DNA of 64,000 nucleotides from a virus (Duplodnaviria > Caudoviricetes). The stretch lies in IMG/VR virus record IMGVR_UViG_3300034166_000463, positions 6,642 through 70,641 of that record; one strand, written 5' to 3'. Each line of letters starts with the position of its first letter. Positions within the stretch are counted from its first letter, which is position 1. The notes beneath the pieces were generated by a model. It did not search any database and was not told the DNA's origin. It saw only the letters and a list, made by a program, of their open reading frames with translations. Shown here one piece after another: positions 2,465 to 61,246 of the stretch. Both the position numbers and the translations under genes were made by a program.

Positions 2465-3110
2465 TCTCTTGCTGTTGTGTTAACCGTGCAGCAGATAGAA
2501 CCAAGAGACTACGGTAAAACGAAAATACGAATAAATACCTAGAGTTGCATGGTGCTCTAAGGATTGAAACGGAACCGACGGAGCGTAATGCCGTCCCAGT
2601 AAACGGTAAGCTGGAAAATTTCTGCGTCGTCCCTGTATAAGCTCCCTTAGGATCATAAACAGTTACGCATAGCCGCAACGAGACGGAAGGCACGGCTCCA
2701 AAGCAAGTTTTGGTAAACGCGGAGAAACCAATTCTCCAGTAGCTTGTGTAAAATTGGGACACAACGGAAAGACGTTGCCTTAAGCATAAACTAAGAAACC
2801 CTCTGAGATATGTGGTATTTATGAAACCGCTAGTAGCGTCAAGCTAGCCCTGCATACGGTAAGCAGGAATCTTTACAGCAAATTCAGAAAGAGTCTTTCT
2901 GTCACCACAAGCAAGATGCTGACGCAACTGGTGAACTCATAAGCACATCTGCCCGTGGATGGTAGACTCACGCGGGAACCTTTCCCTGATGACAGCAAAG
3001 CTGAATCAGAAAACGTGCATACGGACTTCCAGCGCCTTGCGCCTAGCTCACTAGCTGAGTCGGACGGAACCGCTACAACGTCATGGTAGCGCCGGACAGG
3101 TAACTGGCTT
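2465..3110 (+). ncRNA. large structured non-coding RNA candidate 1
   Basis: About 650 nt with no credible ORF and many stems: 2465-2471/2502-2508, long-range 2531-2539/2814-2822, repeated GGTAA-loop hairpins at 2596, 2849 and 3091; followed by a T-tract. Confidence 0.6.
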
Positions 3111-3126
3111 TACTTTTTATTTAGGT

Positions 3127-3615: not shown

Positions 3616-4029
3616 ATGGCTAAAAAATCGACAAAAAAAAGAACCAACATCGAACGACCTTACTGCAATGGAGAATGGACAGAAGCCAGATATACAAGCT
3701 TTATCAAAAGCGCCTTGCGAGGAGCTAGGTGGCCCGAAAAATACCGAGCCATCAACCTTGCCTTCGTCGAGCACGGAATCAACCCCGCCACTGGGCGCAA
3801 ATGCAAGCTACACAAATGCTCCGTATGCGGAAATCTATTCCCCCAAAACGCTGTTCAAGCGGATCATATTATCCCAGTTGTCGGATCAGAAGGATTCGTC
3901 TCATGGGATCGGTTTATTCAGAGGCTGTTTTGTCCCGCAGAAGGATTTCGTGTCGTCTGCAAAAAGTGCCACGGCGAAATAACAGCGCAAGAACGTATCG
4001 GAAGACAGTTTAACAAGCTGCTTTCATAA
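3616..4029 (+). CDS. HNH endonuclease
   Basis: CSVC...QADHIIPV...CKKCH Zn/HNH motifs. Confidence 0.85.
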   Translation: MAKKSTKKRTNIERPYCNGEWTEARYTSFIKSALRGARWPEKYRAINLAFVEHGINPATGRKCKLHKCSVCGNLFPQNAVQADHIIPVVGSEGFVSWDRFIQRLFCPAEGFRVVCKKCHGEITAQERIGRQFNKLLS

Positions 4030-13270: not shown

Positions 13271-13346
13271 CGTAGAATGGCTCGAAAGGTTAGGCGCTTG
13301 GCAGCAAACTAAGAATATGTCGGTTCGATTCCGGCTTCTACGTCCA
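13271..13346 (+). tRNA. tRNA-Cys (GCA), atypical A33
   Basis: Acceptor CGTAGAA/TTCTACG, discriminator T plus CCA, T-arm GTCGG-TTCGATT-CCGGC, anticodon loop CA-GCA-AA. Confidence 0.85.
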
Positions 13347-20900: not shown

Positions 20901-23900
20901 CATTCAGTCTCGCTTCCTCCTCGGCATTAGCCTGAGCTAAACGCTCAGCCCTTTCTTGCTGACCTTCCTCAAAGCCTTGAATAGCTTCTTCATCGGCATC
21001 GGAACGCTCGATTACCGAAGACTCGGAAATCCAATCCGCTTCCGTGCCTCCAAGCTCAACTTCACCGGATCGTGCAATGTCCATCACAGCATTGATCAAA
21101 CTATCTCCAACAACATCAGGAAGGAAAGACGGGGCAAGCGACTCAATGCCGGAATACGCTTGGTCAAAAAACTGCTTGGCCTTGGAATTGGAAAAGATTG
21201 TTCCAACCAAAAGAAGATTTGCAGCAAAAGTTGCATCTCCACCGAAAAGAGCGATTTGGTCAGCGGTTAACTCACCAACCTCTAATTCACGAGCAAGCTC
21301 AATGGACTTGATGAACTGAGCTTTAACTAGCTCGCGGATTCTTTTTTGTTGAGAATCAGTAAATTCAACAGGAGAACCTTGAATCAAGCGCTGGAAGTTT
21401 GCTTCAATTGCTTCATTTGAAGTGGACGTATCAATGGTAGTCTTCCTCCATTTTCCAACAGGACTTGTCTGAGATTCAATTGACTCAGCCCTAATTACAG
21501 GATTAAGCGTGGCATTTACCTTCCCAGCTAAATCGTTTACCATGTCTACAATCGAAGCGTTTTTCTTGGATTGAATAGAAAGGCTGTGAGCAATTACCAT
21601 CGTAGCCTCATCCACCATGCGCTTGTCACGCATAGATACAGACTGAGGAACGTAGATAACATTTGGATTACCGTTTCTTCCCTCAAAGATTCGGATGCCC
21701 GTATCGGAAAGCTGGTGCTTGGCGGCAGTTGCCTCATCTGGAATCACCGCAATTGTATTACCGGGAAGTGTAAGAAGAAATTGCTCAATGATCGGACCAA
21801 CCGTAGAATTAAGAAAAGTAACTTTAGAAGCGTCGATCACTTGACGGCTGTTTTCGGGCTTCATTACCTCTGAGTGAGCGAGTCTCCAGATGTTCCTTGC
21901 TTCCTCGGATGAGGCGAAGGTGTTGTTGCCTTCGTCTAGGATTGGTTTGTTTTTTTTGTTTTTGTTTTTGTTGTTGAATTGGACAAGCGCGTCATCCGAC
22001 TCAAGCAAGGTAACATCCGCATACTCAATAATGGTTTGAAGAACCATCGAAGCAACCCCCTTATCTTTGACGATAGAGCGGTCAATCATTTCTCTTTCAA
22101 AACTCGCCTTGAACGAAGCCAAATCATGCAGGAACCTTTCAGAAGAAGTAAAGTTGTAGCCGTTATTGCTTCCATATTGCTCAAGGAATCCCTTCCTGAT
22201 CTCATCAAAGAAATCCTTACGAGCAGGATTGATGTTTGGAAAAATTCCTACAAGACCACGTTCAAGCAGGGACTTGTCACGCATTACCTTGAAGTAATTC
22301 CTAAGCTGAGTTTGATCCATTGCGTTTAGGTCATCCTCACTAAATTCCTCCAGCCTTTCAACCTGATCCTCAACGTAAGTGTCTTGAGTTCCCAAAAACG
22401 GACTTCCATCATCAACTCTACGGCTAACTGTCTCCATCCTGCTATATCTAGGAGCCGTCCCCATGCGGCGGCGATCCTCCAAAACTTCCTCTACGGTCAC
22501 AAAACCATCCTCGTCAGCCTGTAATAGATCGAAGTAGAAGACGCGCCCTGCGGTGGCGCTACGCCCTGTAGGAGTGTTTGAACCTATAAGTAAGCTCCAC
22601 TGTGCAACTAAGCGCTCGCGGGCTACCTGAAGGCTACTAGCACGGCGCTTAGCTGCCTCACGTTGACTGGAAGCTGCACCAGACTTCACTTCATCCATTC
22701 CCTCAAGAAGAGGAGAATCCTCGCCAGTAAGGAAAGGACGGGAGCGAACATCATCAAAGCCAGCTTGCTGAGAACTCACTACGATTTCATTGTAGTTGGT
22801 AAGCTGAGACTGTTTTCGATAAAAATAACGACCGTCCTTGTCTTGTTTAAGCTCAGAATATTCAGGGACATTTGGATGAGTAAGCGTTCCATCTTCTTTA
22901 GTTGTGACTAAATTGGCTACACTATCAGGCAGGTAAACATCATACTCTTCGGCTTCAGTATAAACATACGGCTCATATCCCTCCCCAAAACTAAGGCGAT
23001 CAAACGCCTCCTCCATCTCAAAACCGAAGTTGGCAGAAAACTGGTAGTCGCGCTCCTTCTCGAAATACTTCATCGCAAAAGACAAGTTCTTCAACGTCCT
23101 AGGACTAAGTGCCGTATCGCGGAGCTTAATGAGCTGTTCGTATTCTGGAACGTAAGCAGCATCCGTAACTGTCCGATTGCCCTCCTTCTCCACATTGCTC
23201 CTCCACTTACGATCCATGAAAGCCTTTGTCTGCTTGCGAACCAAGTTCACAGCCTGAACAGACTCATAAAGAGAACGATCAAACATCGCTTTTTGATTAC
23301 CCTCCCCTACAACTTTAATCAAATTTTCAGCAAGATCAGTAAGCTTCTTTTTGTCCACTCCAGCTTTGAGAACAGGAAGCCCGTTGCTTAAAACAAGCGT
23401 GTCGGCGCTTTTTAGATAGGCCCTATCCATCGAGACGTTCTTAACCTCGACGTATTCCATGACTTTCAGCATCAAGGCTTCGTGCATCCTACGAATTTGC
23501 AAATCCAAGCCATTAGTCAGCGTCCCATTATCTGTTTCATTGCTGAAGGCTTGGTCAAAGATTGGAAGCGAACGCCCAGCAAGTGTCTGCATTCCGCCAA
23601 TCCTAGGCATAAACTCAGAGCCTTGATATAAGCTCCTGATCTTGGTGGACCACTGGCGCATTTCTTCTAGGTAAGAGAAGAGATCGGCAACAACTTTGAT
23701 TGGGTCTTCGTTGTTATCGCCCCTGAATCCTCTCTTAAGTCTACGAAGCCCTCCTACAAGCCTGTTGAGCTTTTGGTGATCAAAGATCGGCATGGCCTCT
23801 AGTAAGCTTTCGTAGCGCACGGAGTCATCGTCAGGATTAACTGTCTTGTCGAATGAGAATCCAGCGGTCTGAGCGTAAGTGTCGATCATTTCGACATTGC

Positions 23901-26900
23901 GAATCGCTCCAATGTTTTCAGCAACAAAAAAGTCAGCAAAAGCATTACGTCCGGAAGCCGTGAAATTTGATTCAGTATCATGTCGATACCTTTCAAGCCC
24001 TGCATTCCACTCACGCTCCGCTGGGGTAAGTCCTTCATCTCCGGGTCTTTCCCACTTAGAATTGGGATCAAGCCCAATAGCTAATCCATCAGCTTCAGTT
24101 TGACCAACGGCAGATTCAGTTCTCTGAGGATAGATGAAGCGCGAAGAATACGAATAAGGAGCATCCGCGTTTGAATTATCGTATCCGTTCTGATGCTCGT
24201 ATGGAAAAATATTGGAGTAACCAACATCCTGAACAACATCAAGCAAATCATCTACCCCAGTATCAACTGGAGGAAGAGACGAGTAAGAATTAGGGTTTTC
24301 AGATTCAGGATTAATAGCCTGAACCTTAATCGCCGTTCCGAAGCCAACCGTCCTCAAGCCAAACTCACCGATAGCACGGTTCTTAGCTGTCTTCAGGGCG
24401 TAGTTGTAATCATCCACCGCACGGGTAAAAGCGATGACAGATTTGTAGTCATCTCCTAAGGAGTCCTTTTGTTCCAGCTTTGGAAGGATGTCGGAATTAG
24501 GAAGGTTTTTGGTGTGCTGGATTCTTGCGTTGTGTGCCTTGCGAATCTCTTGGATTTCTTCAATAACGCTTTGCTCTTTTGCAACATAGGCATCAAACAA
24601 AGACTTTGCTTCACCACGTAAGCCGTTGCCAAAATCATTCTTTTGATCACTAGCAGCCATCTCATCAGACCACATAGGAAGGCGCTGAAGAAGGAGCTTC
24701 AAATGGTTTTCCATCTTAACAGCCAACTCTTCAGGGGTAATCGTAGAATCCTGATCCGCAATGTAATCACGAGTCTCCAAATCTACACCTACCAACAAAT
24801 CCCTGTTTAGCCTGACTAAATCAATACTGTGTGGATTCAGCTTCATCGCTTTACTCCATTCAATAAGCTTACGCTTACCAGCAAACGTAGAAAGGTCTAA
24901 ACCATCAAGCTCTTCCCTTGCGTGATTTTCAAGCGCTTGATGAGCCATTCTTGCTTCGATGATACGTGGTTGGACACTAGACAGCATTGCTTGCTTGATT
25001 CTTTCGCTTCCGTCGATGACTTCAGAGTGAGAAACACTCCCAGTCATATCTTCAAATAGCTTAGTGAACAGCTTCTCACGATCAATGCGGGTGATGCCCT
25101 CACGATCCGGCTTCATCGCACCAGTCCACAAATCCATATCAGAGAACTGAGCGGGAAGGGAATCACGAAGCAACTGAAGCTTCTCCCACTTCAAAAAGAC
25201 TCCTGTGCGTATCTTCTTCATCGCAGGGGTTTGGTCTTCCGAGTAGCCACCCTTTCCATTCAGTCGGTCAAACTGATCATCAAGAGCCTTCATGTCGAAC
25301 TTCTCACGCTCTAGCAAAGCCCTGAATTCAGGATGTAACCCGATCTCCATCGTTTCAGGATCATGGACAATGGCTATATCAATCGAGATGCGATTGGATG
25401 CGGCAATCCGGTTGCGAAGCTGCCTCATCGGGAACGAATTATTCCTAGCGATGATTTGAAGTTCAGACTCCAAGCTCTTATTGTAAAGCTCCTCCATCTT
25501 TGTCCGCTGAGCTATCGTATCGCTATGAGCGTTCAAAACATCCACGTTCAATCCAGATTCCTTAGTAGCGTCAATCAAGCGTCTCAACGGCTCCTGAAGG
25601 TTGCTCGGAAGCATTCCACGGTGGGTGTTGATCCAAAGGATTGTGCGCATCCTTTCGGCGTAGCGACGAACCATATGACCAATCGCCTTCAAATACTTCA
25701 CCAAGCCTCCCTTTTCCCTTGCGTTGCTCTCATCAAGGATAATTGCCTGCTGAAGCATCTTGGATAGCTGTGACTGGCGTTCTGTCGTAGTTCCCGTCAA
25801 GGCCATCTGCACAAACTTACGCAATAGCTCTCCAGAGATTTCCTGACGTTGCTTCTCGGTTGCTCCTTTCTCATTGTTTGGATCTAGGCTTTTGGTAACG
25901 CCCCTCTCCGAAGCTACCTTTTTTAACTCCTCAAAAAGCGGGTGATCCTTGATCTTGCCTTCCGCAACACCTTTCGATTCTTGCTCCGTGCGAAACTCAT
26001 TGTTCAAATCCCAAAGATTGTCATAGTAGCTAAGAAGTTCTTTTGGGGTAAACGTCCCGTAAGTAACAATGTGGATTCCCTCTTCGCTTAAGACGCTTGT
26101 AATAAGAGCCGCAGCATCATACGCCAAAAGCTCTTGGGCAAATTGATTGCCCGTGTCTGAATTAAAATAAAGAGCAACTAGCTCCTTCTTAAGCTTATCG
26201 TAATCAACAACAATAGATGATGGTTTTTTGGAGCCTTTCTCAGCAGGTTCAGCAAAAATGTAACCATCCCCGTTAATCTTCCGTTGCACAACTTTGAAGT
26301 TATTTCTTGGCGCGACAACCGAAAGAAGTTCTTTAAAAATGGTCTCTACTTCAGCAATGGTAATTTCACCATTAGAGAAGCGGGACATCATAGGCACAAT
26401 ACTCTTGATCGACCTATCGAGAATTGAGCGTGTGTATCTAGCGGAGGTTTTGCGTAGCTGATCATTTAGCGAGTTCTGATTGGCAGCATCAAAGTCAATG
26501 TTTAACGCCTCAAAAATAAGCTCGCCATCCACAACCTTTTTCAGCATCAGAACCTGCTTGTCGTTGCCAGCAATCACAACCGTATCGCCAACACCCATTG
26601 TTGAAGCCATTCCCTTAGGGGGCATGTAGCCATAGCGCTCTTTTCCATTCTCAGAAGACTTGCGTGACCATTTGGCTCCAGCTGCGTCCGTGCCGCCTTT
26701 AAGGGTGGCTTCCTCAACAATGTAGGTTGTTTCAGGATCAAGTCCGTCAGTGATGCTTGGCGCGTCAGCAATAGCCGCTGCCCGCATCGGGACATGACCG
26801 TCTTCGCTCAGCTTTTGAATCGCTTTGATTGTATTGCTAACTCGGTTGCTCGGCCTGTCTGTTTCTGTCTTTGCGTATTCAGCAGCAATAAGTTCTGGCG

Positions 26901-29900
26901 TAGCCGCAATACCATCGCGATCAAGCCGTGCTGCAATGATCTGCTCCGGGGTTTTGGGTTCCTCTTTGACTTCCTCTTCTACTTGCAGCCCTTTGGTTTC
27001 GTCCCCTTGGTTTTCGGTTTGTTTTTCATTTGGTTGTTTTGTTTGTTGTTTTTCTATTTCTGCAATCTTTGGTTCTGCTTTAGTGGATGCTGGAGCGGGT
27101 GCTTCTGTTTTAGCTTGAACTAAAGATAGGCTGGAAGTTTGAACGGTTTTTCTTTTGTCGCCAACTTTAACAAAAGCCATTTTTGCACGACCAGATAAAT
27201 CAAAAGTAGAATCATCATACCCTAGAAACTCAACTTCCGATGGAGCGCTTCCATCAGAAGGAATGTAGGTAAGTTTATCTCCCGGCGCGGCTTTTACTGC
27301 TGCTGGAGAAGGTGCACCAGCGTCTGGCTGTCGTGTCTGCTCAGTCCCGCCATCGCCTGTAGTTCTGCTATCGCGGTCATCTTGGGGCGGAGCGCTATCT
27401 CTTGGACGCGTTTCGCTGAGAGGTGCGATTTGCTTATTATCTGCATCAACTGTTGTGCTTTGTTTACTGGTTTCATTTGTCCATTCATCATATTGTTGAG
27501 CTTTTTCGTCTGGGGTTGCGTTAACGATACGCTCTAGTTGGGCGGCTTCTGTATTCCTACCGCTGTCCTTAAGTTGTTTTTGAGCTTGCGCAGGAGTCAG
27601 ATAAGCAGGCTCGGAAGCCACTTTTTTACCAAGTCCCTTCTTAGTAATCCTTACCATCTTGAACGCTACGTTATCGTTGCGCTTCCCGCTTGCATCACTG
27701 ACAGCATGAATCGGAGTGAGTTCGTAGCTTCCTTCTTTGTCCTTGTAGGTGGCCTTGCTTCCCTCAACAGTTTTAGAATCACGCGACCACTCGCGACCAG
27801 CAGGAGCCTCCTCGCCAATGCTTTGCATTACCTGACCCAGCGAACCTTTTGGATAAGCCCTCTGAGAGGCCGCTGAAGCCGCCTGTGTTGAACTAGGGGG
27901 GGTAGTGCCAGAAACGTTGGAGGGAGGCGCTTGAGTGGAGGCGGAAACCAAAGAAGAAGGCATCGCTTGATAAACACCAATACCTCTTGCTGCACGGACA
28001 AGCATTGCTGATTTTTGCTCAATGTCCTTTTGTGGATCTGAATCAAGCTCAGTAGCCATAATTTCGGAAAAGTTCATAGCCTTCCCGCTAACATCCATTA
28101 TACCATTATCTTTACTGAAATTCCCAACATTTGTCTCAATTGCCTTCCACTTGTCGCTCATCGCATTGAGAGCATCAGACTTGCCGAAAACCGATGGAGC
28201 ATTAGTAGCTGCTCCAATGCTAGCACCCATGCCGCCACCAATAGCGCCAAGAACACCCGCCTTAACATATTCTTTCCAATTCTCACCAATGTTTCCCCAG
28301 AAATCTTCTTTCCAAGTTTTGGAATCGTCGAGCATTGCGCTAATCGAATCCGAAATAATTCCGTCAGCCGCCTCTTCCACAGCCTCAGCGCCAATGTTGC
28401 CAGCAACACCAATACCTTTCAGCCCCATTTTCCTAGCCGCATCATTCATCTCCTGAGCAATGTCCCTAGCAAACTGCTTTCTAAGACCAGCGCCAGCATC
28501 ACCAGCTAAATGCTCAAGAGCATCTTGAGTGGCTTTCATTCCTTCTTTCTGAACAACCCGATTGCGAAGGTTCTGAATTAGGCTTGTTCCAACTCCCTCA
28601 TCCCCCATGCCAAGCGCCTTACCCATACCCGGAGCAACACGGTTCATTACCCCAGTGGCAATCATCACAGCAAGGCCATTAGAAATGCCTTCGATATTCG
28701 CAGCCTTTAAAGCCTCGTCACGGTTTCCAGTCCTTTCGTAAGCTTCGTTGAACGCGTTTCCAAAACCCATTCCAGTAGCTTGAAGCGATCCAATGTAAAG
28801 CTCTGGATCAGTGGCAGCAGCCTTCAGCCAACCACCCATTTTAGCAGGAATGCTAATTTTAGGCAAAGTTCCACCAGCCTTCAGCAAGTCTTTAGCCGCA
28901 GCTAAACTCGTTGCTTTTGCTGTCGCTGACTTCAAAACAAGATCACCTCCAGGTCCTGCCGCATAACGACTTGCTCCTACCGCACCAGCTTTTGCTAAGC
29001 TCTTCCCAGCCAAGGCTCCCATGCCACCCATCGCAACAAACGAACCAACCTGACCAGTAAGCTGGGTTAAGTCCCTACGAGTGATGTCTATCCCAAAAGC
29101 TGAAAACTGAGTTGTGTTACTGTAGGCCTTTGCAGTATCTTCAGCTAGTCCACCAAACGCCTCAGCAGGAGAAGTGTAATTCCCAAAACTGGCTAACCAC
29201 AAAGCACCAGTTCCAGTTGCCATCACCGCATCACGAAGAGTTCCAGCAACCTCAGAAGCCACTCCATATGAATCTTTACTGAACCTCTCCTTGCGAGCCT
29301 TGATAAACTCGTAAGCGGAGGCTCCGGGCTTGCTCATCTCTTCTGCAAATTCATCACTTAAAGGACGACTAAACATGGAGCCAATCACCCCAGCATCGGC
29401 AGCCGCAAAAGCATTTACTATTTTGCCAGCATTGGCTTCGACCTGCGAGCGATAATCACCAAGCAAAATCTTTTTATCAGCAAGAGACAACTCTTCATTT
29501 GAATTGATGGCATTTTCCATCTTATCAATCTCAGAATAGTTCATGGAATTAAGAACCCATTGACCTCCAACTTTCTGCATCATTACGTCTTCACCTAAAG
29601 TTTCAGGCGTATACAATTCACGAGCCATCCTTTGAGACCATTGTTTCTTAAGCTCCTTGTTCTCTGGATCAATCTTTGCTTCGTCGCTTTTTACATTCGA
29701 ATTTGCATACGAAACAAAATCCTCCCAAGCTAAACTAGCTGTCTCATCTTCGGTTGCGAGCGCATTCTTTTCAGACATCCAATTTTGAAGATCACTAAAA
29801 GGATCAAACTGTTTTTGCCTGTCAAGTATTGGAGATAAATGCTGAGGAGCTACGAATTCCTGATCAAACCGATCCCACTCCACGCCACCAGATTCATCTT

Positions 29901-30267
29901 CAGCAGCAGCAGCCAAGTAAGAGCGTTGTTGCTGTAACCATTCCCTACCTGTTGCCGTCCAACTTTTATCAGGATTGAGCAATGGCATATCCTTCACTTC
30001 ACCTCGCCTATTGGTCCACGTAATCTTTCTGTCAGGATTCTTTTCCGCCGATTCAATCAATCGGGTAAAAGCAAGATCAACTGTCTTTCCTCTTTGGGCA
30101 GGAGTAGCCTTCCTCCACAAATCACTCTTAACAACCCCTAACGCGCTACCGTAATCAATCTGAACTGGTTGAGTAGGGCCATCATCAAAAGAATCAGACC
30201 CTCCGTATGGAGAGTCGTATTTTAATGCCGAGTAATCTGATCCGTAGTCTTCGGTGTCGTATTTCAT
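14971..30267 (-). CDS. giant internal virion/ejection protein (5098 aa)
   Basis: 15.3-kb uninterrupted ORF at the end of the structural operon; Gly/Ala-rich N-terminal helices (GAIGGGMGA); no Cys found by eye. Confidence 0.8.
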   Translation of the reverse strand: MKYDTEDYGSDYSALKYDSPYGGSDSFDDGPTQPVQIDYGSALGVVKSDLWRKATPAQRGKTVDLAFTRLIESAEKNPDRKITWTNRRGEVKDMPLLNPDKSWTATGREWLQQQRSYLAAAAEDESGGVEWDRFDQEFVAPQHLSPILDRQKQFDPFSDLQNWMSEKNALATEDETASLAWEDFVSYANSNVKSDEAKIDPENKELKKQWSQRMARELYTPETLGEDVMMQKVGGQWVLNSMNYSEIDKMENAINSNEELSLADKKILLGDYRSQVEANAGKIVNAFAAADAGVIGSMFSRPLSDEFAEEMSKPGASAYEFIKARKERFSKDSYGVASEVAGTLRDAVMATGTGALWLASFGNYTSPAEAFGGLAEDTAKAYSNTTQFSAFGIDITRRDLTQLTGQVGSFVAMGGMGALAGKSLAKAGAVGASRYAAGPGGDLVLKSATAKATSLAAAKDLLKAGGTLPKISIPAKMGGWLKAAATDPELYIGSLQATGMGFGNAFNEAYERTGNRDEALKAANIEGISNGLAVMIATGVMNRVAPGMGKALGMGDEGVGTSLIQNLRNRVVQKEGMKATQDALEHLAGDAGAGLRKQFARDIAQEMNDAARKMGLKGIGVAGNIGAEAVEEAADGIISDSISAMLDDSKTWKEDFWGNIGENWKEYVKAGVLGAIGGGMGASIGAATNAPSVFGKSDALNAMSDKWKAIETNVGNFSKDNGIMDVSGKAMNFSEIMATELDSDPQKDIEQKSAMLVRAARGIGVYQAMPSSLVSASTQAPPSNVSGTTPPSSTQAASAASQRAYPKGSLGQVMQSIGEEAPAGREWSRDSKTVEGSKATYKDKEGSYELTPIHAVSDASGKRNDNVAFKMVRITKKGLGKKVASEPAYLTPAQAQKQLKDSGRNTEAAQLERIVNATPDEKAQQYDEWTNETSKQSTTVDADNKQIAPLSETRPRDSAPPQDDRDSRTTGDGGTEQTRQPDAGAPSPAAVKAAPGDKLTYIPSDGSAPSEVEFLGYDDSTFDLSGRAKMAFVKVGDKRKTVQTSSLSLVQAKTEAPAPASTKAEPKIAEIEKQQTKQPNEKQTENQGDETKGLQVEEEVKEEPKTPEQIIAARLDRDGIAATPELIAAEYAKTETDRPSNRVSNTIKAIQKLSEDGHVPMRAAAIADAPSITDGLDPETTYIVEEATLKGGTDAAGAKWSRKSSENGKERYGYMPPKGMASTMGVGDTVVIAGNDKQVLMLKKVVDGELIFEALNIDFDAANQNSLNDQLRKTSARYTRSILDRSIKSIVPMMSRFSNGEITIAEVETIFKELLSVVAPRNNFKVVQRKINGDGYIFAEPAEKGSKKPSSIVVDYDKLKKELVALYFNSDTGNQFAQELLAYDAAALITSVLSEEGIHIVTYGTFTPKELLSYYDNLWDLNNEFRTEQESKGVAEGKIKDHPLFEELKKVASERGVTKSLDPNNEKGATEKQRQEISGELLRKFVQMALTGTTTERQSQLSKMLQQAIILDESNAREKGGLVKYLKAIGHMVRRYAERMRTILWINTHRGMLPSNLQEPLRRLIDATKESGLNVDVLNAHSDTIAQRTKMEELYNKSLESELQIIARNNSFPMRQLRNRIAASNRISIDIAIVHDPETMEIGLHPEFRALLEREKFDMKALDDQFDRLNGKGGYSEDQTPAMKKIRTGVFLKWEKLQLLRDSLPAQFSDMDLWTGAMKPDREGITRIDREKLFTKLFEDMTGSVSHSEVIDGSERIKQAMLSSVQPRIIEARMAHQALENHAREELDGLDLSTFAGKRKLIEWSKAMKLNPHSIDLVRLNRDLLVGVDLETRDYIADQDSTITPEELAVKMENHLKLLLQRLPMWSDEMAASDQKNDFGNGLRGEAKSLFDAYVAKEQSVIEEIQEIRKAHNARIQHTKNLPNSDILPKLEQKDSLGDDYKSVIAFTRAVDDYNYALKTAKNRAIGEFGLRTVGFGTAIKVQAINPESENPNSYSSLPPVDTGVDDLLDVVQDVGYSNIFPYEHQNGYDNSNADAPYSYSSRFIYPQRTESAVGQTEADGLAIGLDPNSKWERPGDEGLTPAEREWNAGLERYRHDTESNFTASGRNAFADFFVAENIGAIRNVEMIDTYAQTAGFSFDKTVNPDDDSVRYESLLEAMPIFDHQKLNRLVGGLRRLKRGFRGDNNEDPIKVVADLFSYLEEMRQWSTKIRSLYQGSEFMPRIGGMQTLAGRSLPIFDQAFSNETDNGTLTNGLDLQIRRMHEALMLKVMEYVEVKNVSMDRAYLKSADTLVLSNGLPVLKAGVDKKKLTDLAENLIKVVGEGNQKAMFDRSLYESVQAVNLVRKQTKAFMDRKWRSNVEKEGNRTVTDAAYVPEYEQLIKLRDTALSPRTLKNLSFAMKYFEKERDYQFSANFGFEMEEAFDRLSFGEGYEPYVYTEAEEYDVYLPDSVANLVTTKEDGTLTHPNVPEYSELKQDKDGRYFYRKQSQLTNYNEIVVSSQQAGFDDVRSRPFLTGEDSPLLEGMDEVKSGAASSQREAAKRRASSLQVARERLVAQWSLLIGSNTPTGRSATAGRVFYFDLLQADEDGFVTVEEVLEDRRRMGTAPRYSRMETVSRRVDDGSPFLGTQDTYVEDQVERLEEFSEDDLNAMDQTQLRNYFKVMRDKSLLERGLVGIFPNINPARKDFFDEIRKGFLEQYGSNNGYNFTSSERFLHDLASFKASFEREMIDRSIVKDKGVASMVLQTIIEYADVTLLESDDALVQFNNKNKNKKNKPILDEGNNTFASSEEARNIWRLAHSEVMKPENSRQVIDASKVTFLNSTVGPIIEQFLLTLPGNTIAVIPDEATAAKHQLSDTGIRIFEGRNGNPNVIYVPQSVSMRDKRMVDEATMVIAHSLSIQSKKNASIVDMVNDLAGKVNATLNPVIRAESIESQTSPVGKWRKTTIDTSTSNEAIEANFQRLIQGSPVEFTDSQQKRIRELVKAQFIKSIELARELEVGELTADQIALFGGDATFAANLLLVGTIFSNSKAKQFFDQAYSGIESLAPSFLPDVVGDSLINAVMDIARSGEVELGGTEADWISESSVIERSDADEEAIQGFEEGQQERAERLAQANAEEEARLNGEIEVVEEEDNLTDAIFSVTSGFSDKVKSEIMGMIMANGGGSYFTGKSAFYSDADIVLLNSLNSIIASAMKAREGVQPLKPSRDAREMLEKPGYLRDEDEIKGNELAQPVVAPVAWKENAGKIYVGEAKNLGRPSLPGNRTSLTQGFADRRISNMNANVLQLSPYVQKRIKLKAEEAIRQSLEKTRIDAANNKSSLDYSQLKRFKGINLEIEMSDDIIEELRNILPAGYMDQAEQEVRDEIARLEKNVSKMTKAQAKKHYELYEALEKRVSFPRGKVTKEVSDMMGYPQRFAQRLADMLQESVIFEEGKVDQVAKGMSSFVRRQFRNDPLFKASFNQMATLLDTINRELFVRNIFSEQNEDTVLIESGANPFRTIVSPEENETRIGDLIRSYNANVDVVNLVLDSITKQGMALIGIDGSTKGYRLPYILGNPDSISPQDLISLRRRSFGVDSTAKFKGQLMQHAERTIAAAFADSIAQELAESSGKTKQKSIPVGKDTRRNAQVKNFIKLVRQRMEEGRDLDNFDLASEITSALDMMTERLKTDPNGKPFSEYVESIYLSFAEEDALYDRSLATDDPSYINKGQTAEQRDLVNKLEIQLDVISRGLAANQAALDLIDHTDYSQPIGKTYHRGVVGVPAVGQDNNQILPGIEPMTREAGVNITLVAKGLGLTESGVAAREAWTGDQPSMDEASSASLKAQRRAFYAQKEAIVRALSEFAEERLEDVYRDQRNTEENFVEFDPLGTIEISVEMAKIEMKLLDDYFSQAKSEAAEANYRGMMDNAVAILTDPKDANRYNLLKRSKKNTVNLIRLPQNFEERLERIGMYHKEEGMSMILMPTTAADEMIRAFPTVTRKNVNSEIAHVAMAAQSLSGNQSQGTQTPSYFFEEVNKDTDAKFKSIDKLNEVTNKREEWRLAKPDMTRAEVADAFADEFEARITKWLGDIRNRHSNGKAKTIKMDGRITKAAMSQSKSLIRQIVLAYSSGKLEGNRYMHVKSEVMKFMAKIDDIDTDTKGENGMPRSFTFKMEDAGKLVTESMQLFKIEKTFSLVFSALEADLIAKRIVAGMTVSDSNTDLTMMRLAHHHDARIRSRFRKSFSAKQAVRHLVGILDHGFDGVSGREGYETSRRIAKEEIGNSAKEVGSSAKNHAIGYLLAQIRGIKDAHGMSLAHAYTTWATQQNFGHRQSQDFVIAQEKKYGKNKVSKYWSGGHLDLVRDQPLATEIDAIMRKATSVISIKNNDPLAEEKAEKAIADLESALIDAIEDNKKSEVDAYAKTLSSVFADIDAAMHLSLALSSKKGRDVDALDEKTKWKHADIQAFKPTATNVPMRLGYAKDPTARKQGREGRYISDPIEIVALDEAAFFGGIAKGEPFERNRVYRPVMVNGLSTPLSMVDDAIYRLNVTPSYEILRHSIGKVRAPHGPIEITDSDMEDTLQSFGENLDEFETIREINARNNEHYRWKKDANTAFAAVAYELETIVQNDSAIGTAQTGGAETLRFLSSMYIMRALASPLQWWDQSVSPSFGYTVGKLVANKPKSVGLYFSTLSKMLTSSKFRNEVRDFIQKTSPYVYYRASDGQDVAEDMIRGQERYGVGQVKAKVGRGLRAYERFAEKTLSFTIGKPERMLAGTIFMIELAEKMNVKTVDDVLLRKNDVTKELAQQAKLKVNDVMAQSDQSKKSWFFQTRDQSPVLNAFWKSLVRFSNHTASTSSNTSVLTHTMFTQQERGLSEMDYYYVSEKDAEDSRREAMENVATTLTQNILFYPMKLKMLLPAVLYLVFKAGDDDDDEAVLRAQQVTNDLIVPNEDSNVIHRAIMAVIFGKDRPLFQDRGTVDEAQASALAEILNTTAQESITAIPLAGVAFGYSPVRGLIDKAFTNPGSEEAAALFMDVERNTANIREYRPGFLEGTAEFTAPTAAAYDYAAAAKLLLDYNMTDYASSNKGISLKDSLLYFMSEVLPGTRESRGFMQDRLREPVKNEKQ

Positions 30268-52801: not shown

Positions 52802-52875
52802 TGGTTGCGCAGACGAGAATCGAACTCGTAACTCAAGCTTATGAGGCTCGCATGATACCTTTTCAACACCGCGCT
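52802..52875 (-). tRNA. tRNA-Met(CAT), initiator-like 1:72 mismatch
   Basis: Minus strand AGCGCGG...CT-CAT-AA...GTTCGATTC...CTGCGCA-A-CCA. Confidence 0.85.
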
Positions 52876-53661: not shown

Positions 53662-54200
53662 CACTCGAACCAAGAGCCATCGGTCGTAACTGATCGGTGG
53701 CTCTCATTCGGGAGTTAGAGAAACCTCTCACATCCCATCCCCATCATACCGGCAGATTGTTTTTCCGCACTCAATCGTTGGGTTGCCTTCGGTGATTTTG
53801 GTCTTATTGTATTTAATCTCCGTTGTGGGCTTCGCTTGATGCTTTATTAAGATAATAACAATCAAACTTTGTTATCTTATCTGATGATTCAAACACCTTT
53901 GTCACCCTCAGACGGAGAAATCTTGATGCTTTTATACCTCAGAGATGATTCTTTTGTGAGCTTTTATGTCACGAAAATGGCTTTAAGACTATTTATGGCT
54001 ACTTAAGGCTCGTTTGGGGCTCCTTTGGGGTGATTTGGGCTCATTTTGGGTGATGGTGAGCGTAGGGTTTAGCAATGGGCTAAATCTGAGGTTTGGCTAC
54101 ATATTCTATTCACTGTCTTCCTCTCTTCGATTTTAAAGAGAGGTGGAGAAAAAAGTAAAGCATAAAAGTTAAAAAAGTAACTTGAGTGGATTACTAAGGA

Positions 54201-58195: not shown

Positions 58196-58552
58196 GGGGC
58201 TGTAATGGTTTCGACACAACGCGATAGAATACATAAGCAAGTAGAGGTTGATCGGCTGGCCTCTTTAATAAGCCGCTCAAAACAAACAAATGGCAACAAC
58301 GTCATTCGCGGAAACTTCGGAAGCAACACAGTTGCTCTCGTAGCCTAAGCAAAACACGCCCTCCGAAACGCTCGCTCTACGAAGGGAAACAAAACGAGCA
58401 AAAAACGCAACTCAGCGGCGTAAAGACTGAGTGGTGGAGGATGCAAAGCGCAAGCCAAGCGTCCCTAACGATTGACTGCCATAAGTAGTCTAAGCTTGTA
58501 GAAAATGTATTTAACAGCGTTGTGAACGGGGGTTCGACTCCCCCCAGCTCCA
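58196..58552 (+). ncRNA. ssrA: tmRNA
   Basis: 5' GGGGCTGTAATGGTTTCGAC; 3' GGGGGTTCGACTCCCCCCAGCTCCA with G3:U70; tag ORF 58292-58348 GNNVIRGNFGSNTVALVA*. Confidence 0.93.
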
Positions 58553-58600
58553 GTTCCAAATTAAGACTTGCATCAAACCCTTAATCAAGTAAGTTTGAAC

Positions 58601-59140
58601 ATGTCTAAAACAAAAGAAGCAATCAGAATAGCGTTCAAGAAAGGCTATCGAGTAATGAATGATGGAAGTGTATGCAATGCAATAGGAAAAACCCGAAAAC
58701 TACAAATCACAAAATCAGGAACAGGACAAAACCCAATCCCGTATTATGTTTTCAACGTAGGAATAGGTAATTCCAAACGCTACCCAGTAAAAGTGCATCG
58801 ACTACTAGCTTTTCAGCTATTTGGCGAAGATGCTTTAAAAAATTCCATACACACAAGACATCTTGATGGGAACTCCCTAAATAACACTCCTCAAAACATC
58901 CGCTTAGGAACAGGATCGGAAAATGCAATGGATAGATGCCCAAAAGAAAGAAGACTTCACGCACAAAAAGCATCAAGATCAGCAAGCCGTCACACAGATG
59001 AAACATGGGCGGAAGTTCGAGCAGATCACAAAGCTGGACTCGGATACAAAAAACTAAAATTAAAATACGGAATTAGCCCTTCATCACTATCTTACCAATT
59101 GTCAAAAACCGGAAAATACAGAACTCTTACCAATAGGTAA
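58601..59140 (+). CDS. HNH homing endonuclease
   Basis: KVHRLLA...RHLDGNSLNN...NIRLGTGSEN and a C-terminal HTH. Confidence 0.9.
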   Translation: MSKTKEAIRIAFKKGYRVMNDGSVCNAIGKTRKLQITKSGTGQNPIPYYVFNVGIGNSKRYPVKVHRLLAFQLFGEDALKNSIHTRHLDGNSLNNTPQNIRLGTGSENAMDRCPKERRLHAQKASRSASRHTDETWAEVRADHKAGLGYKKLKLKYGISPSSLSYQLSKTGKYRTLTNR

Positions 59141-59175
59141 CTCTCCCATCTCCACTTTTTTTAAACCTATCAATC

Positions 59176-59388
59176 ATGATAAACCTAATAAAAAACAGCG
59201 ATCAAATTCAAATCAACGCAGAATGGAATCCGCCGTTCAAACAAGAAGAAACTCCCCGCGAGCGTCAAGACAGGCATGAAAAACATCAAGCCATGTTGCA
59301 AGATCACAAAGAACGCAAAGCACTTGCGCAAGAAAAGCACAAAGCTGGATGGCATAAATTCAAATTTGCTCCAAACACTTTGTTCTAA
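59176..59388 (+). CDS. hypothetical protein
   Basis: Short charged ORF. Confidence 0.5.
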   Translation: MINLIKNSDQIQINAEWNPPFKQEETPRERQDRHEKHQAMLQDHKERKALAQEKHKAGWHKFKFAPNTLF

Positions 59389-59394
59389 ACAATC

Positions 59395-60180
59395 TGGGAT
59401 AAATAAGTGAGCCTACAAAAAACATCACTTCGATTGACTGGCGTAAGCAGTCACCACATTTCAGCCTTTGCAGTAAGGGCATGACCTGACGATCTTACTT
59501 GGGGTAAAAGAGAACACTTGCCAGCCCCATTCAACCCACCTTGGCAAACTGATTAGCTATCAGTCACAACATGTAGGCAGAGGTCTGATACGTGAGCGAC
59601 CTGACCAAAGGTTGAGATGTGGTGCTTAAATGAGGTCATGGCTAAAGAGTGAGAAATATCCATGGAGTATGCGCCCTCGCAGCCACGCAAAAAATACTCC
59701 TCCCACACTGACGCTTAACAACCGTTTGAGCATAGTCGTTACGACTTGCAGCCGTAAGCTGCTATCTAAAGGTCTTTGTCAGTGAGTCAGCATCCGGTAG
59801 TCACGATACGGAGCGGGTGCAAAGAGCCAAATAAGTATGATAAGCTCTTTGGTTGCTGTGTAAAACGTAGGCGTCTCCACACGCCAATTGCTGACAAAAA
59901 CTGCCACTTTCAAAAACGTAATGAATTTTGGTTGTAAAGTGAAAACAGTAAGGGCGTATGCCAGTGAATACTAGATGGTGCAATCCCACTCTTGGAGACG
60001 TAACTTGTATAACCAAAACCCGTTTGCTTCGTAGGCAATAAGTAGACTTTAGCAGCAGTCACTAAGCCTCAGGTTGAGCCATGCTAACTAGAACATGGGC
60101 GAAGCAATCAATTTGCCGCTGGAGATGGAACGAATGAGTGAGGCGCAAGTAGCTCGCCCTCTGTCTCCAGTGGCAATCAC
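59395..60180 (+). ncRNA. large structured non-coding RNA candidate 2
   Basis: 19-bp helix 59452-59470/59606-59624 (2 G-U pairs), 17-bp helix 60113-60129/60160-60176 (3 G-U pairs), and crossing pairings 59480-87/59633-40, 59872-79/59993-60000, 59926-36/60008-18. Confidence 0.75.
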
Positions 60181-60446
60181 TTTCTCAGTGTGTGTGTAAA
60201 TGTCTCCTCTAGCAATTCGAATTCCCTAGTTACTGGGTTTTTAGCCTCGGCTAAATAAAGAATTTCTAGGGGAGACGCTTTCCCAAAACAATATAATATG
60301 ATAACTCTAACATTCGCATTAACAGGAATGCTAATACTAATACTGCAACTAATGATTGAAGATACAAAACTATTAATTCAATCAATAAAAAAAGAAATCT
60401 ACGAATCTTTTGATCACGACACAAAAATACACCAAGACTACCAACC

Positions 60447-60902
60447 ATGAACGGATTCCCCGAAGAAGATGATATGGGTCTGGCCAAAGAGCACAAACTC
60501 CAGCAAGAGATCGACCAGCAAAACAGCAAATCTGCGATCAGAATAGCCATAGCAGAAGCGTGTGGGTGGACTCGTGAATACGCCGATGTCCCAACGTGGA
60601 ACGCCTCCCTTAATAGTTACCAAGGAGGATACGAACCAGTTCAAACCCTGCTTTTTCGCAAAGAAGAAAAATGCTTCGTTGTAGAAAACTTACCCGACTA
60701 CCTCAGCGACCTCAACGCCATGCACGAGGCAGAGAAGTCATTGAACCCAAGCCTAGCAGGATGTTACGCAAGAACGCTTACATCAATAGCATGGCAATCA
60801 GAACAACCTGTTTTTGCTCCAATGACAGCAACCGCCGCCCACCGAGCAGAAGCTTACCTCCGCACGATTGGAAAGTGGACAACCAACCCGAACGAACTAT
60901 GA
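60447..60902 (+). CDS. phage ABA-sandwich-like protein, paralogue 1
   Basis: RIAIAEACGW...LPDYLSDLNAMHEAEK...ATAAHRAEA. Confidence 0.6.
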   Translation: MNGFPEEDDMGLAKEHKLQQEIDQQNSKSAIRIAIAEACGWTREYADVPTWNASLNSYQGGYEPVQTLLFRKEEKCFVVENLPDYLSDLNAMHEAEKSLNPSLAGCYARTLTSIAWQSEQPVFAPMTATAAHRAEAYLRTIGKWTTNPNEL

Positions 60903-61246
60903 ATAAAGAACAACAACGTATCGCCATTGCGGAGGCGTGTGGGTGGAAATTAGTTACGGATAATCCAGAATATGAGCCATACTGGGAAGATCCAAAAGGA
61001 AATATGGTTGCTGTTAACAACGGTGTTCATAGACTTCCCAACTACCTCAACGACCTCAACGCGATGCACGAGGCGGAAAAGGTGCTTTGGGAAATGGACT
61101 GGAGCTTCCGAAGTATTTTTAACGACCACTTAGCCAACATAATAAAAAGGCGAAAAGTAAATCGTAACGAATGGGATGCAGAAACTTTACTTGACGCAAC
61201 CGCCGCGCAACGCGCAGAAGCTTTCGTAAAAACTCTTTCCAAATAA
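60899..61246 (+). CDS. phage ABA-sandwich-like protein, paralogue 2
   Basis: The same three motifs; ATGA-coupled. Confidence 0.6.
   Translation: MNKEQQRIAIAEACGWKLVTDNPEYEPYWEDPKGNMVAVNNGVHRLPNYLNDLNAMHEAEKVLWEMDWSFRSIFNDHLANIIKRRKVNRNEWDAETLLDATAAQRAEAFVKTLSK

Follow-up and report, generated by a model that had tools for sequence, protein, structure and literature searches.

The closest described systems to the locus reported here are GOLLD and ROOL, phage-encoded structured non-coding RNAs that often lie beside tRNA genes; GOLLD was found in lake metagenomes and combines a conserved part with a variable part (PMC12286853). We analyzed a stretch of phage DNA of 64,000 nucleotides (the window) and describe an RNA that shares their context only. 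It too occurs in lake phages beside tmRNA and tRNA genes and joins a conserved scaffold to variable parts, but it matches neither RNA in sequence or structure. Its conserved unit measures ~135–230 nt, versus 580–800 nt or more for GOLLD and ROOL, and its variable part sits inside a constant rod rather than in the 5' half. Unlike for GOLLD and ROOL, covariation gives no evidence of intermolecular contacts.

Two other groups are useful for comparison. In Y RNAs the paired 5' and 3' ends form a conserved rod, a protein handle, which carries a modular apical domain. T7 R1.1-type RNase III sites and HK022 put RNAs are structured elements on the gene strand of phage early transcripts; they are 60–70 nt long, recur at multiple places within a genome or stand just after a promoter, and contain no large conserved core. 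Such elements take the shape of an irregular hairpin around a conserved internal loop. Like Y RNA and YrlA, the window RNA has a rod that closes the ends, presumably as a protein handle, and a modular apical domain; two features of its core, a T-loop-like run and a hairpin with a 7-nt loop, are reminiscent of tRNA. Like the early-transcript elements, it lies on the gene strand and has an irregular rod with a conserved internal loop, but it differs from them in its length of 135–230 nt, its single locus per genome and its ~45 invariant unpaired bases.

A structured stretch behind the phage tmRNA gene

The stretch that follows the tmRNA gene is a real, strongly structured non-coding RNA locus on the + strand. 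Its setting is as follows.

58196–58555, + strand: phage tmRNA gene (Rfam RF00023, 120 bits; ARAGORN)
58568–59140, + strand: HNH endonuclease gene between the tmRNA and the RNA (Pfam HNH_3; PHROG HNH families)
59389–60297, + strand: ORF-free, highly structured non-coding stretch, a mosaic of RNA modules (ORFs, AT skew, Rfam, copies)

The tmRNA matches the RF00023 model end to end (1–374). Searches of the ten neighbouring ORFs against Pfam and PHROGs identified the HNH endonuclease only, a 190-aa protein of the HNH_3 homing-endonuclease type. Its gene is probably a mobile insertion; there is no room for it in L083 and L147, where only 7 nt separate the tmRNA end from the RNA, or in L095. Between the stop of a 70-aa ORF (59388) and the ATG at 60298, neither strand contains an ORF longer than 71 aa; with an ORF threshold of 75 aa the gap spans 59141–60265. 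The AT skew is 0.10–0.13 over ~59350–60100 and falls to about zero by 60250, while that of the flanking + strand genes is ~0.3.

Three contigs (L002, L119 and L130) contain a copy of 59389–60297 that is 98.6% identical, and this identity persists in lake metagenomes sampled from 2016 to 2024. The neighbouring genes of L002 are conserved equally well, so the identity does not indicate an extra constraint on the stretch. Four DNA runs over the stretch yielded only the two known haplotypes and one intermediate, and no joints. A blastn search of 50,697 GenBank phage records with 59300–60350 and with the L111 copy gave no match.

An earlier note on this DNA had read a ~780-nt RNA in this stretch, with long helices, closing stems and pseudoknots. 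The helices are present, a few bases away from where the note had placed them: 19 bp between 59452–59470 and 59606–59624, and 17 bp between 60113–60129 and 60160–60176, with G-U pairs as the sole imperfections of both. A G-U-tolerant helix of 19 bp arose in 0/200 dinucleotide shuffles of 59414–59635 and in 1/200 of the full 909 nt; for the 17-bp helix, 1/200 shuffles of 59897–60297 reached its length. The two closing stems (59706–12/59778–84 and 59786–92/59889–95) lie where the note had placed them, and both are perfect Watson-Crick helices. A single 7-bp stem is by itself close to chance. Counted together, such stems number 29 in the whole region (19.9 ± 4.7 in shuffles, 8/200 equal it) and 5 in the 265-nt piece 59636–59900 (1.26 ± 1.06 in shuffles, 1/200 equal it). 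Loops with CGUAA, corresponding to the GTAAG-type loops of the note, cap the hairpins 59436–52 and 59748–62.

The folding-energy z-score of the whole region is −2.96 for the + strand and −4.54 for the − strand, so folding energy by itself cannot choose the strand. By piece, the values are −3.28 for 59436–59630, −2.24 for 59897–60297 and −0.87 for 59636–59900. The + strand is assigned because G.U pairs are conserved in helices P2 (one pair, 29/30 copies) and P4 (one pair, 21/21). Together with the covariation described below, they bear out the note's reading of a structured RNA encoded on the + strand close to the tmRNA.

The constant rod and its variable core

The 5' part of the stretch (59436–59624) belongs to a phage RNA family not described before and known only from uncultured phage and metagenome contigs. 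A full-text literature search, with supplements outside its scope, returned no description of the scaffold RNA. The window copy is built as follows.

59436–59452, + strand: P1 hairpin, 5-bp stem, with a G bulge or a 7-nt loop, with CGUAA (covariation)
59453–59470, + strand: 5' strand of P2, pairing with 59606–59623 over 18 bp (19 bp with 59452/59624)
59473–59484, + strand: rod above P2, 5' side, with near-invariant GAGGGCA (covariation)
59500–59529, + strand: P4 (59500–05/59524–29) around P5 (59510–12/59517–19) (covariation)
59520–59545, + strand: candidate pseudoknot, GCCA 59520–23 with UGGC 59542–45, crossing P4 (putative pairing)
59548–59564, + strand: P7 hairpin, 6 bp with a 5-nt loop, or 5 bp with the 7-nt loop UUAGCUA (covariation)
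59590–59605, + strand: rod, 3' side: 3' strand of P3b (59590–93), invariant loop GAGCGA (59594–99), CCU (P3a), G, AC
59606–59623, + strand: 3' strand of P2 (helix and covariation)

The scaffold thus runs from the P1 hairpin through P2, an end-closing helix of ~18 bp with one conserved G.U, to a CA bulge, P3a, an internal loop and P3b. On its 5' side the rod reads GU (paired with 59604–05), G, AGG (P3a, paired with 59600–02), the invariant GC 59479–80 and P3b (59481–84). The internal loop is asymmetric and invariant, GC standing opposite GAGCGA, and the short P3b beyond it covaries. The rod sequence is CAUUCCAGCC...GAGGGCA on one side and UGAGCGACCU...GGUUGGAAUG on the other. The rod of GAGGGCA and UGAGCGACCU is constant; the cores that it encloses differ in sequence and in length (~23 to ~120 nt), and the RNA units measure ~135–230 nt.

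We scored pairing in 30 copies. Across the scaffold 97.8% of 864 cells are paired, and 22/29 pairs changed on both sides (compensatory). P1 is paired in 97.2% of cells with 5/6 pairs covarying and P2–P3a in 98% with 17/23; the conserved G.U of P2 stands at CAG/UUG. No shuffle in 500 equalled any measure, and slid controls were 34–45% paired. The alignment (A8) was fitted to the model and therefore favours its structure. Helix 3 of the first model, only 61% paired, was replaced by P3b. A blind covariation scan was dominated by clade-level correlations and yielded the corrected register of P3b only, with no extra pseudoknots.

The family model (R1) was built from seven sequences. It finds full-length copies in 21/21 member loci with E below 1e-39 and, counting the shorter-core variants, 30 copies in 27 loci. 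These counts and the diversity of the family are biased to look-alikes, since members were collected by sequence patterns taken from the family itself. The window (59414–59635) falls within the family as defined, scoring 209.9 bits (E 2e-64), partly by construction because it belongs to the model seed; independent members score 132–190 bits. Among bacteria and archaea, sampled at one genome per species (185,579 species), a strict pattern selected 10 contigs, of which 0 passed the model, a search whose reach is limited by the pattern.

The core found in the window is the commonest type and comprises P4/P5, P7, the candidate pseudoknot and an invariant run that includes a T-loop-like sequence. 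In 21 sequences of this type, aligned with MAFFT and not fitted to the model, 96.0% of cells are paired, 25/50 pairs are compensatory, and 0/500 shuffles equal the core on four of five measures. P4 is 98.4% paired (3/6 pairs covary), P5 95.2% (3/3), P7 93.7% (4/6) and the rod helix P3b 95.2% (3/4); GGGG/CCCC of the P4/P5 region is replaced by GAAG/CUUC in other members. Helix 6 (CCAC/GUGG) is weak, at 91.7% paired with one pair in only 16/21.

About 45 unpaired bases of this core are invariant. The candidate pseudoknot spans one such run, AUU.AA.C.ACCUUGGC, which includes the T-loop-like UUCAAYC. Because GCCA and UGGC are themselves invariant in 21/21 sequences, covariation neither supports nor refutes their pairing. 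Of the three pseudoknots proposed in the earlier note, this one candidate is left. The other long-range pairings, of 12–13 bp (59807–19/60021–33 and 59639–50/59844–55), match the mean longest helix of shuffles (12.6), and each has one partner in a segment that the relative L114 lacks. A kissing-loop dimer through the palindrome of the P7 loop is unsupported, the palindrome being broken in 4/21 sequences without a paired change.

Genomic neighbourhood, modules and competing readings

The family RNA lies within 1.5 kb of a same-strand tRNA or tmRNA gene in 9/27 loci; in the other 18 none is found within that distance, several of those loci being short. The tmRNA is 859 nt away in the window and 7 nt away in L083. 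The tRNA distances are 46 nt in L266, ~175 nt in L177 (tRNA-Arg) and L217 (tRNA-Thr) and ~417 nt in L218 (tRNA-Thr), and a tRNA-Met follows the RNA at 0.65–1.4 kb in L085, L086 and L074. Directly 3' of the RNA, L109 and L113 show T-arm-like minihelices. Each genome has one RNA locus, in six cases with tandem copies (L074, L085, L086, L125, L177 and L217).

No neighbouring protein conserved across all loci was found. A tie to the neighbouring AIAEACGW-motif protein was rejected: R1 finds nothing in 78 loci that encode this protein, so the RNA is not linked to that gene. P1 as a virion RNA polymerase promoter hairpin was rejected as well, the exact motif being absent in three genomes and present as a single copy in each of G000 and G002.

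Could the RNA be a cis-acting element of an early transcript, such as a processing site, a 5' stabiliser or a put-like processive antitermination element that would carry RNA polymerase through the many small early genes? We consider this possible, though on balance unlikely. All neighbours of the RNA share its strand, and promoter-like sites, judged by eye, directly precede P1: an A-tract with TTGACA-17-TAATAA in L088 and L125, and TTGACG in L111, L117 and L121. In L117 and L111 an ORF begins ~30–90 nt 3' of the RNA, so the RNA there would be an mRNA leader. By eye, a clear intrinsic terminator is missing 3' of the RNA in most loci, and the long, irregular P2–P3 rod, whose internal loop is conserved, may recall the layout of T7 RNase III sites. 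However, the ~45 invariant unpaired bases and the multi-helix core exceed what a processing site or a stabiliser needs. What directly follows the RNA is non-coding, with no gene: a second copy, a tRNA-like minihelix or, in the window, 650 nt more RNA. In L083 the RNA comes immediately after the tmRNA. The genes downstream vary from locus to locus and are mutually unrelated, which also argues against a gene-specific riboswitch, and processing sites usually recur within a genome, whereas this RNA has one locus.

The whole ~780–900 nt might instead be a single large ornate RNA that folds as one, a functional analogue of GOLLD and ROOL that perhaps forms RNA-only multimers. The stretch is free of ORFs and rich in stems throughout, it is kept at high identity across years of lake sampling, the 5' and 3' domains are adjacent in L114, and the context resembles that of GOLLD and ROOL, which occur in phages, often near tRNA islands (PMC12286853). 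Comparison with other contigs shows that the stretch is a mosaic of separate RNA modules and not one co-evolving ~780-nt RNA. The modules beyond the 5' domain are the following.

59637–59700, + strand: module with a conserved loop and hairpin 59664–70/59694–700, start of the lineage-specific insert (homologues)
59642–59896, + strand: insert with two stem-closed domains (59706–12/59778–84, 59786–92/59889–95), absent from L114
59897–60115, + strand: 3' domain common to L114, ~93% identity (comparison and predicted fold)
60113–60176, + strand: 17-bp hairpin module (60113–29/60160–76), independent repeated element (recurrence with covariation)
60193–60285, + strand: terminal long hairpin with a three-way top, common to L114

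Other contigs have the conserved 5' domain (~190–225 nt) without the window's downstream parts. In L114 the 5' domain is joined directly to 59897–60115 and 60188–60297, so that the 255 nt of 59642–59896 and the 72 nt with the 17-bp hairpin are missing. The first 60 nt of the insert recur independently in other phages, the 59637–59700 module having homologues in L271 (8786–8843) and L272 (E 3e-5) with the same loop and another stem. Variation in 59642–59896 is limited to four single substitutions. The 3' domain has a predicted helix 59926–40/60003–18 around a junction beginning CAGUAAGGGC, then 60024–32/60099–107 with two hairpins; 6/7 predicted pairs that vary among three sequences remain paired. 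Homologues of the 17-bp hairpin (L130/L151, L152 and L153) show compensatory stem changes around a conserved inner part, and in L002 two of its G.U pairs have become Watson-Crick. Within the terminal hairpin, an inner hairpin (60225–37) is followed by a terminator-like UUUUU.

Covariation is thus strong for the 5' domain, but the single ~780-nt unit of the earlier note does not hold. A single large RNA is improbable in our view: its modules recur separately, the pairings that would connect them are of chance length, the sole candidate for a kissing contact is the broken P7 palindrome, the identity reflects no extra constraint, and neither GOLLD nor ROOL is matched even at E up to 10.

That the RNA is a strongly diverged representative of an established class, such as a Y-RNA-like RNA with a tRNA-like module, a small RNase P- or group I-like ribozyme or a riboswitch, is highly improbable. 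The paired ends and modular apical domain might recall Y RNAs, the core has the T-loop-like UUCAAYC and the 7-nt-loop hairpin, and the many invariant junction bases are ribozyme- or aptamer-like. The cmscan search that the earlier note had proposed found no Rfam family. At the gathering score, Rfam 15 gave no match in the stretch when the whole window was searched; at E up to 10, 59000–60500 gave only the chance-level eukaryotic SMAD5-AS1_4 (E 1) and mir-1270 (E 7.4). In the window as a whole and in 31 other member or related loci Rfam found tRNA and tmRNA only, and two members, L109 and L113, gave at E up to 5 only a mascRNA-like match (E 3.1).

Class by class, GOLLD (RF01998) stayed below threshold, with no match in the window, in 59000–60500 at E up to 10 or in the 31 related loci, and the ROOL model had none in the window or in 59000–60500 at E up to 10. 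The note had offered a divergent GOLLD/ROOL member or a new class; the new class is what remains. The GOLLD/ROOL-type context does exist (the RNA occurs solely in viral and metagenome contigs, and 9/27 loci have a tRNA or tmRNA within 1.5 kb), but it does not define membership. OLE, HEARO (the IscB omega RNA), raiA and all Rfam classes of RNase P had no match in the window or in 59000–60500, and the adjacent 190-aa HNH protein is presumably too short for an IscB. Group I and group II introns had no Rfam match either; the RNA is flanked by ORFs or RNA genes that are complete and unrelated, and it interrupts no gene, so it is not an intron. Y_RNA and YrlA had no Rfam match in the window or in 59000–60500, a Ro/TROVE gene was found in 0/3 complete phage genomes (control, 2/14 genomes), although a host might encode Ro, and to our knowledge the rod sequence is not a Ro-binding helix. 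A retron msr-msd would come with a reverse transcriptase, and RVT_1 was found in 0/3 complete phage genomes (control, 3/14). Downstream genes that are unrelated across loci speak against a classical riboswitch; on inspection by eye, neither a terminator nor a sequestering helix recurred consistently.

We give hardly any credence to a DNA-level or selfish element (a small mobile element with variable cargo between terminal inverted repeats, or else a signal for replication or packaging, with the structure as a by-product): constant ends, variable insides, tandem copies, a patchy distribution among phages and the HNH homing endonuclease gene that adjoins the RNA in the window would fit it, but the scaffold pairs show compensatory changes and an all but universal G.U, which is a mismatch in DNA, transposase-bound inverted repeats conserve sequence and not complementarity, no transposase, reverse transcriptase (0/3 genomes) or other enzyme accompanies the RNA, and there is one locus per genome.

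A proposed role and what it would mean

Taken together, these results favour a + strand modular non-coding RNA locus whose 5' domain is an RNA of the stable-RNA island, with the rod as handle and the core as working part. We put the probability of this joint reading at about one half. The RNA would be transcribed early, from the strand that its neighbours also use and within an island of stable RNAs (tmRNA and tRNAs). Enzymes that trim tRNA and tmRNA may cut it free, and its paired ends would protect it. The constant rod may serve as a handle that a single shared partner, probably a protein, recognises, and the work itself would fall to the variable core, as a pocket that binds some molecule of the host or the phage. 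In this lineage the locus would have gained further structured modules: the 59642–59896 insert, a second rod-like domain, the repeated 17-bp hairpin and the terminal hairpin.

A more specific version, which we regard as speculative and rather unlikely, is 'RNA display'. Here a nuclease-protected constant rod, bound by a single partner, would present interchangeable cores that bind different targets. The cores may act as decoys or sponges that take up host factors or defence signals, with phages exchanging them as cassettes, and the window locus would be an array of cassettes and accessory hairpins in a stable-RNA island.

Phages invest in elaborate non-coding RNAs, and GOLLD and ROOL have no known function; a well-supported new class is a further handle on why. 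The scaffold RNA is compact (135–230 nt), combines a constant part with swappable cores and sits beside tRNA and tmRNA genes in abundant lake phages, and it therefore lends itself to structural studies, to pull-downs of partners and to phage genetics. It is also a ready candidate for inclusion in Rfam as a new family. For annotation, the ~900-nt 'empty' stretch of these phage genomes is best read as an array of RNA modules, neither a single gene nor junk. If RNA display were true, the scaffold RNA would represent a new functional class of phage RNA, beyond a new family.

Genes around the RNA stretch

The window spans positions 6642-70641 of an IMG/VR virus record of 70.6 kb, whose completeness is rated 100%. 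Near-identical DNA was listed in 24 metagenome runs from lakes and freshwater, with dates from 2016 to 2024. The phage belongs to an uncultured lineage, since its primase-helicase reaches a best identity of only 31% to cultured phage proteins.

Features around the RNA stretch
upstream of the tmRNA, + strand: 587-aa ORF, then 150-aa ORF
58196-58555, + strand: tmRNA gene (Rfam, 120 bits)
58568-59140, + strand: HNH endonuclease gene (HNH_3), between the tmRNA and the RNA stretch
59176-59388, + strand: 70-aa ORF
59389-60297, + strand: ORF-free stretch of 909 bases (no ORF >71 aa)
downstream of 60297, + strand: small ORFs

The AT skew drops from ~0.3 in genes to 0.10-0.13 over ~59350-60100. The related contig L002 (also L119, L130) has the entire stretch, 98.6% identical and with 13 changes; because the flanking genes are equally similar, this identity reveals no special constraint. 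Most changes lie in predicted loops, and two convert the G.U pairs of the 17-bp helix described below to Watson-Crick pairs. The tmRNA is near-identical in L002 save one 150-nt bin (58350-58499, 59% identity with indels); ARAGORN gives 357 nt in the window versus 392 nt in L002, with identical tag peptides. The HNH_3 gene is 100% identical in L002 over 58650-59099 with varying flanks, and is probably an inserted, free-standing homing endonuclease.

Further along, two tandem genes (60447-60902 and 60899-61246) encode one very common phage protein family (motifs AIAEACGW and NAMHEAEK) that matched at least 598 stretches in one viral scan and nothing in Pfam or PHROG. Elsewhere, a single 5098-aa ORF occupies 14971-30267 on the - strand (no Pfam match in its first 1756 residues), an RNA ligase family gene (PF09414, 13411-14067) adjoins a tRNA-Cys gene (13271-13346), and a tRNA-Met gene lies at 52802-52875 on the - strand. 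At a 75-aa threshold there are two other ORF-free gaps: 2763-3126 (364 nt; + strand MFE z-score only -1.48), which may be the "RNA candidate 1" of an earlier note on this DNA, and 53662-54200 (539 nt), which separates - strand and + strand gene blocks.

A constant rod with exchangeable cores

Contig L074 matched the window more weakly, over 59429-59627 only, and already displayed compensatory changes. We collected relatives of this RNA (59436-59624 in the window) by scanning three collections with patterns drawn from invariant runs, the verdict resting with R1, the family covariance model. One pattern scan of viral contigs gave 25 stretches and 12 loci passing R1, including two near-identical pairs (L002, of the same lineage as the window, and L091/L093). 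In metagenome contigs there were 25 stretches, 11 of them passing; among bacteria and archaea (185,579 species, each represented by one genome) there were 10, none passing. Two rod-only patterns added three full members as well as a group of variants whose cores are shorter or of another kind. At E below 1e-8, on a rough E-value scale, R1 found 30 copies in the 27 loci supplied. These counts are lower bounds biased to look-alikes, since the patterns derive from the family itself. The six genomes or records searched in full had one locus each, and several phages carry tandem double copies.

Elements of the family RNA
P1: hairpin in every copy, loop often CGUAA
P2: ~18-bp helix joining both ends of the RNA, every copy
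above P2: CA bulge, two further pairs, G opposite G, every copy
P3a: AGG/CCU, every copy
internal loop: GC opposite GAGCGA, invariant in the 21 window-type copies and nearly all short-core variants
P3b: short helix in every copy, register corrected by eye, then confirmed
P4/P5 (window core): GGGG/CCCC or GAAG/CUUC, depending on the member
invariant run (window core): GCCAGC...AUU.AA.C.ACCUUGGC
rest of window core: hairpin P7, GUCA.A.CA.G, variable purine-rich linker, UGAGCGACCU

In the 30-copy scaffold alignment, which was fitted to the model and so favours its structure, 97.8% of cells are paired and 22 of 29 pairs changed on both sides. None of 500 shuffles matched these figures, and pairing fell to 34-45% when the partner was shifted by 1-3 columns. 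A model-independent MAFFT alignment of the 21 window-type copies gave 96.0% paired, with 25 of 50 pairs compensatory. Covariation is thus strong for the 5' domain. The same rod bears different cores, of ~23 nt in L267, 35-95 nt in L266, L268, L269, L271 and L217, and ~116 nt in the window type. Where three pseudoknots had been proposed, one candidate could be defined: GCCA (59520-23) can pair with UGGC (59542-45) across P4. This pairing never varies, so that covariation is neutral on it.

Against shuffles, folding energy was low for either strand (z -2.96 for +, -4.54 for -) and thus does not pick the strand. Conserved wobbles do: one G.U in P2 (29/30 copies) and one U.G in P4 (21/21) would be mismatches on the opposite strand, which places the RNA on the + strand, along with the neighbouring genes and as the earlier note had proposed.

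The family RNA often lies in islands of stable RNAs. In a 76-kb phage with a complete genome (L083/L147) the tmRNA ends 7 nt before it, with no space for an HNH gene; in the window the distance is 859 nt, and the HNH gene and a small ORF intervene. L266, L177, L217 and L218 have tRNAs of various identities on the same strand, 46-417 nt upstream, and L085, L086 and L074 have tRNA-Met 0.65-1.4 kb downstream. In total, 9 of the 27 loci have a tRNA or tmRNA within 1.5 kb; the other 18 have none in the sequence available, which is short for some. A T-arm-like minihelix directly follows the RNA in L109 (1704-1762) and L113 (~3660-3745). Both minihelices have an acceptor-like stem and a T arm with loop UUCGAAU or UUCAAAU; ARAGORN and the Rfam tRNA model do not call them, and that of L109 weakly matches mascRNA-like (E 3.1). 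By eye, promoter-like sequences precede P1 in L088/L125 and L111/L117/L121. No reverse transcriptase or Ro/TROVE gene was found in three complete phage genomes.

Taken together, the conserved, end-closed + strand fold, the rod with swappable cores, the phage-only occurrence and the stable-RNA-island site suggest a stable RNA. It would be released by tRNA and tmRNA processing, the rod serving as a handle for a common partner and the core as a working pocket; we give this reading a probability of about 0.5. The main rival, a less probable one, is that the RNA acts in cis on the early transcript, in processing, stabilisation or antitermination. Loci with an ORF close after the RNA would suit such a role, whereas the large and invariant core and the loci with only other RNAs downstream speak against it. 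Downstream genes are unrelated from locus to locus.

A mosaic of RNA modules

The earlier note had read the stretch as one ~780-nt RNA. A script enumerating all helices recovered its two long helices imperfect only by G-U pairs, of 19 bp (59452-70/59606-24; reached in 0 of 200 shuffles of its own domain) and 17 bp (60113-29/60160-76), and both 7-bp closing stems. A single 7-bp stem is near chance, and 59636-59900 is enriched (5 versus 1.26 expected). The relative L114 joins the 5' domain directly to 59897-60115 and 60188-60297: it has neither the insert 59642-59896, in which both stem-closed "multiloop" domains lie, nor the 17-bp hairpin. Copies of this hairpin lie between other genes in L130/L151, L152 and L153, where the stem has changed in compensatory fashion and the inner part is conserved. 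L271 and L272 carry the first 60 nt of the insert 3' of the family RNA, with the same loop on another stem. Pairings between modules are no longer than in shuffles. Thus, 59389-60297 is a locus of RNA modules and not a single co-evolving fold, and one giant RNA is unlikely.

The 3' domain (59897-60115) is common to the window lineage and L114 only (~93% identity); 6 of 7 predicted pairs differing among three sequences remain paired. It opens with CAGUAAGGGC, the motif starting the upper part of the rod, and so may represent a second copy that has decayed, comparable to the second elements of L074 and L125; R1, however, gave no score there.

The ~65-nt hairpin (60113-60176; L130:7079-7152, equal to L151:12782-12855; L152:7335-7417; L153:10324-10396) stands just upstream of differing genes in related lake phages. 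Its outer stem covaries (GGAGAU/GUCUCC versus GGGGGC/GCCCCC) around a conserved inner part, GGAACG..GAG..AAGUAGCUC.CCCUCUG, and it looks like a separate small RNA motif or mobile hairpin. Another shuffled module is a conserved element of ~50 nt (..CUGCCGCCUCGUCAGAGCGGACACCGGAUCAGUAACCGGA..) containing two small hairpins. It recurs 3' of the family RNA, immediately ahead of the next start codon: 20-110 nt after the RNA in L089, L095 and L121, and at ~8630-8670 in L271. In L091 (560-610, - strand) two copies of a 22-nt direct repeat, AAGUAAAACAACGGAUGAUUAA, directly follow the family RNA.

Relation to known RNAs

At gathering score, Rfam 15 found the tmRNA and two tRNAs in the window and nothing else; at E up to 10, 59000-60500 yielded only two chance-level eukaryotic matches. 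The GOLLD and ROOL models were silent in that search, against the suggestion of a divergent member, as were those for OLE, HEARO, RNase P and introns. A search with blastn of 50,697 GenBank phage records found no match. A hidden member of a known RNA class and a DNA-level or mobile element both fit less well than a stable RNA and are very improbable.

PMC12286853 characterises GOLLD and ROOL as RNAs of phages and prophages, unknown in function and often close to tRNA islands. They are the nearest known systems by context, but the scaffold RNA is unlike both in sequence and fold. Titles and abstracts returned by a full-text literature search held no earlier description of it. We conclude that the scaffold RNA is a new family within a known kind, the structured phage RNAs of tRNA islands, with an unusual design in which a constant rod carries a variable core.
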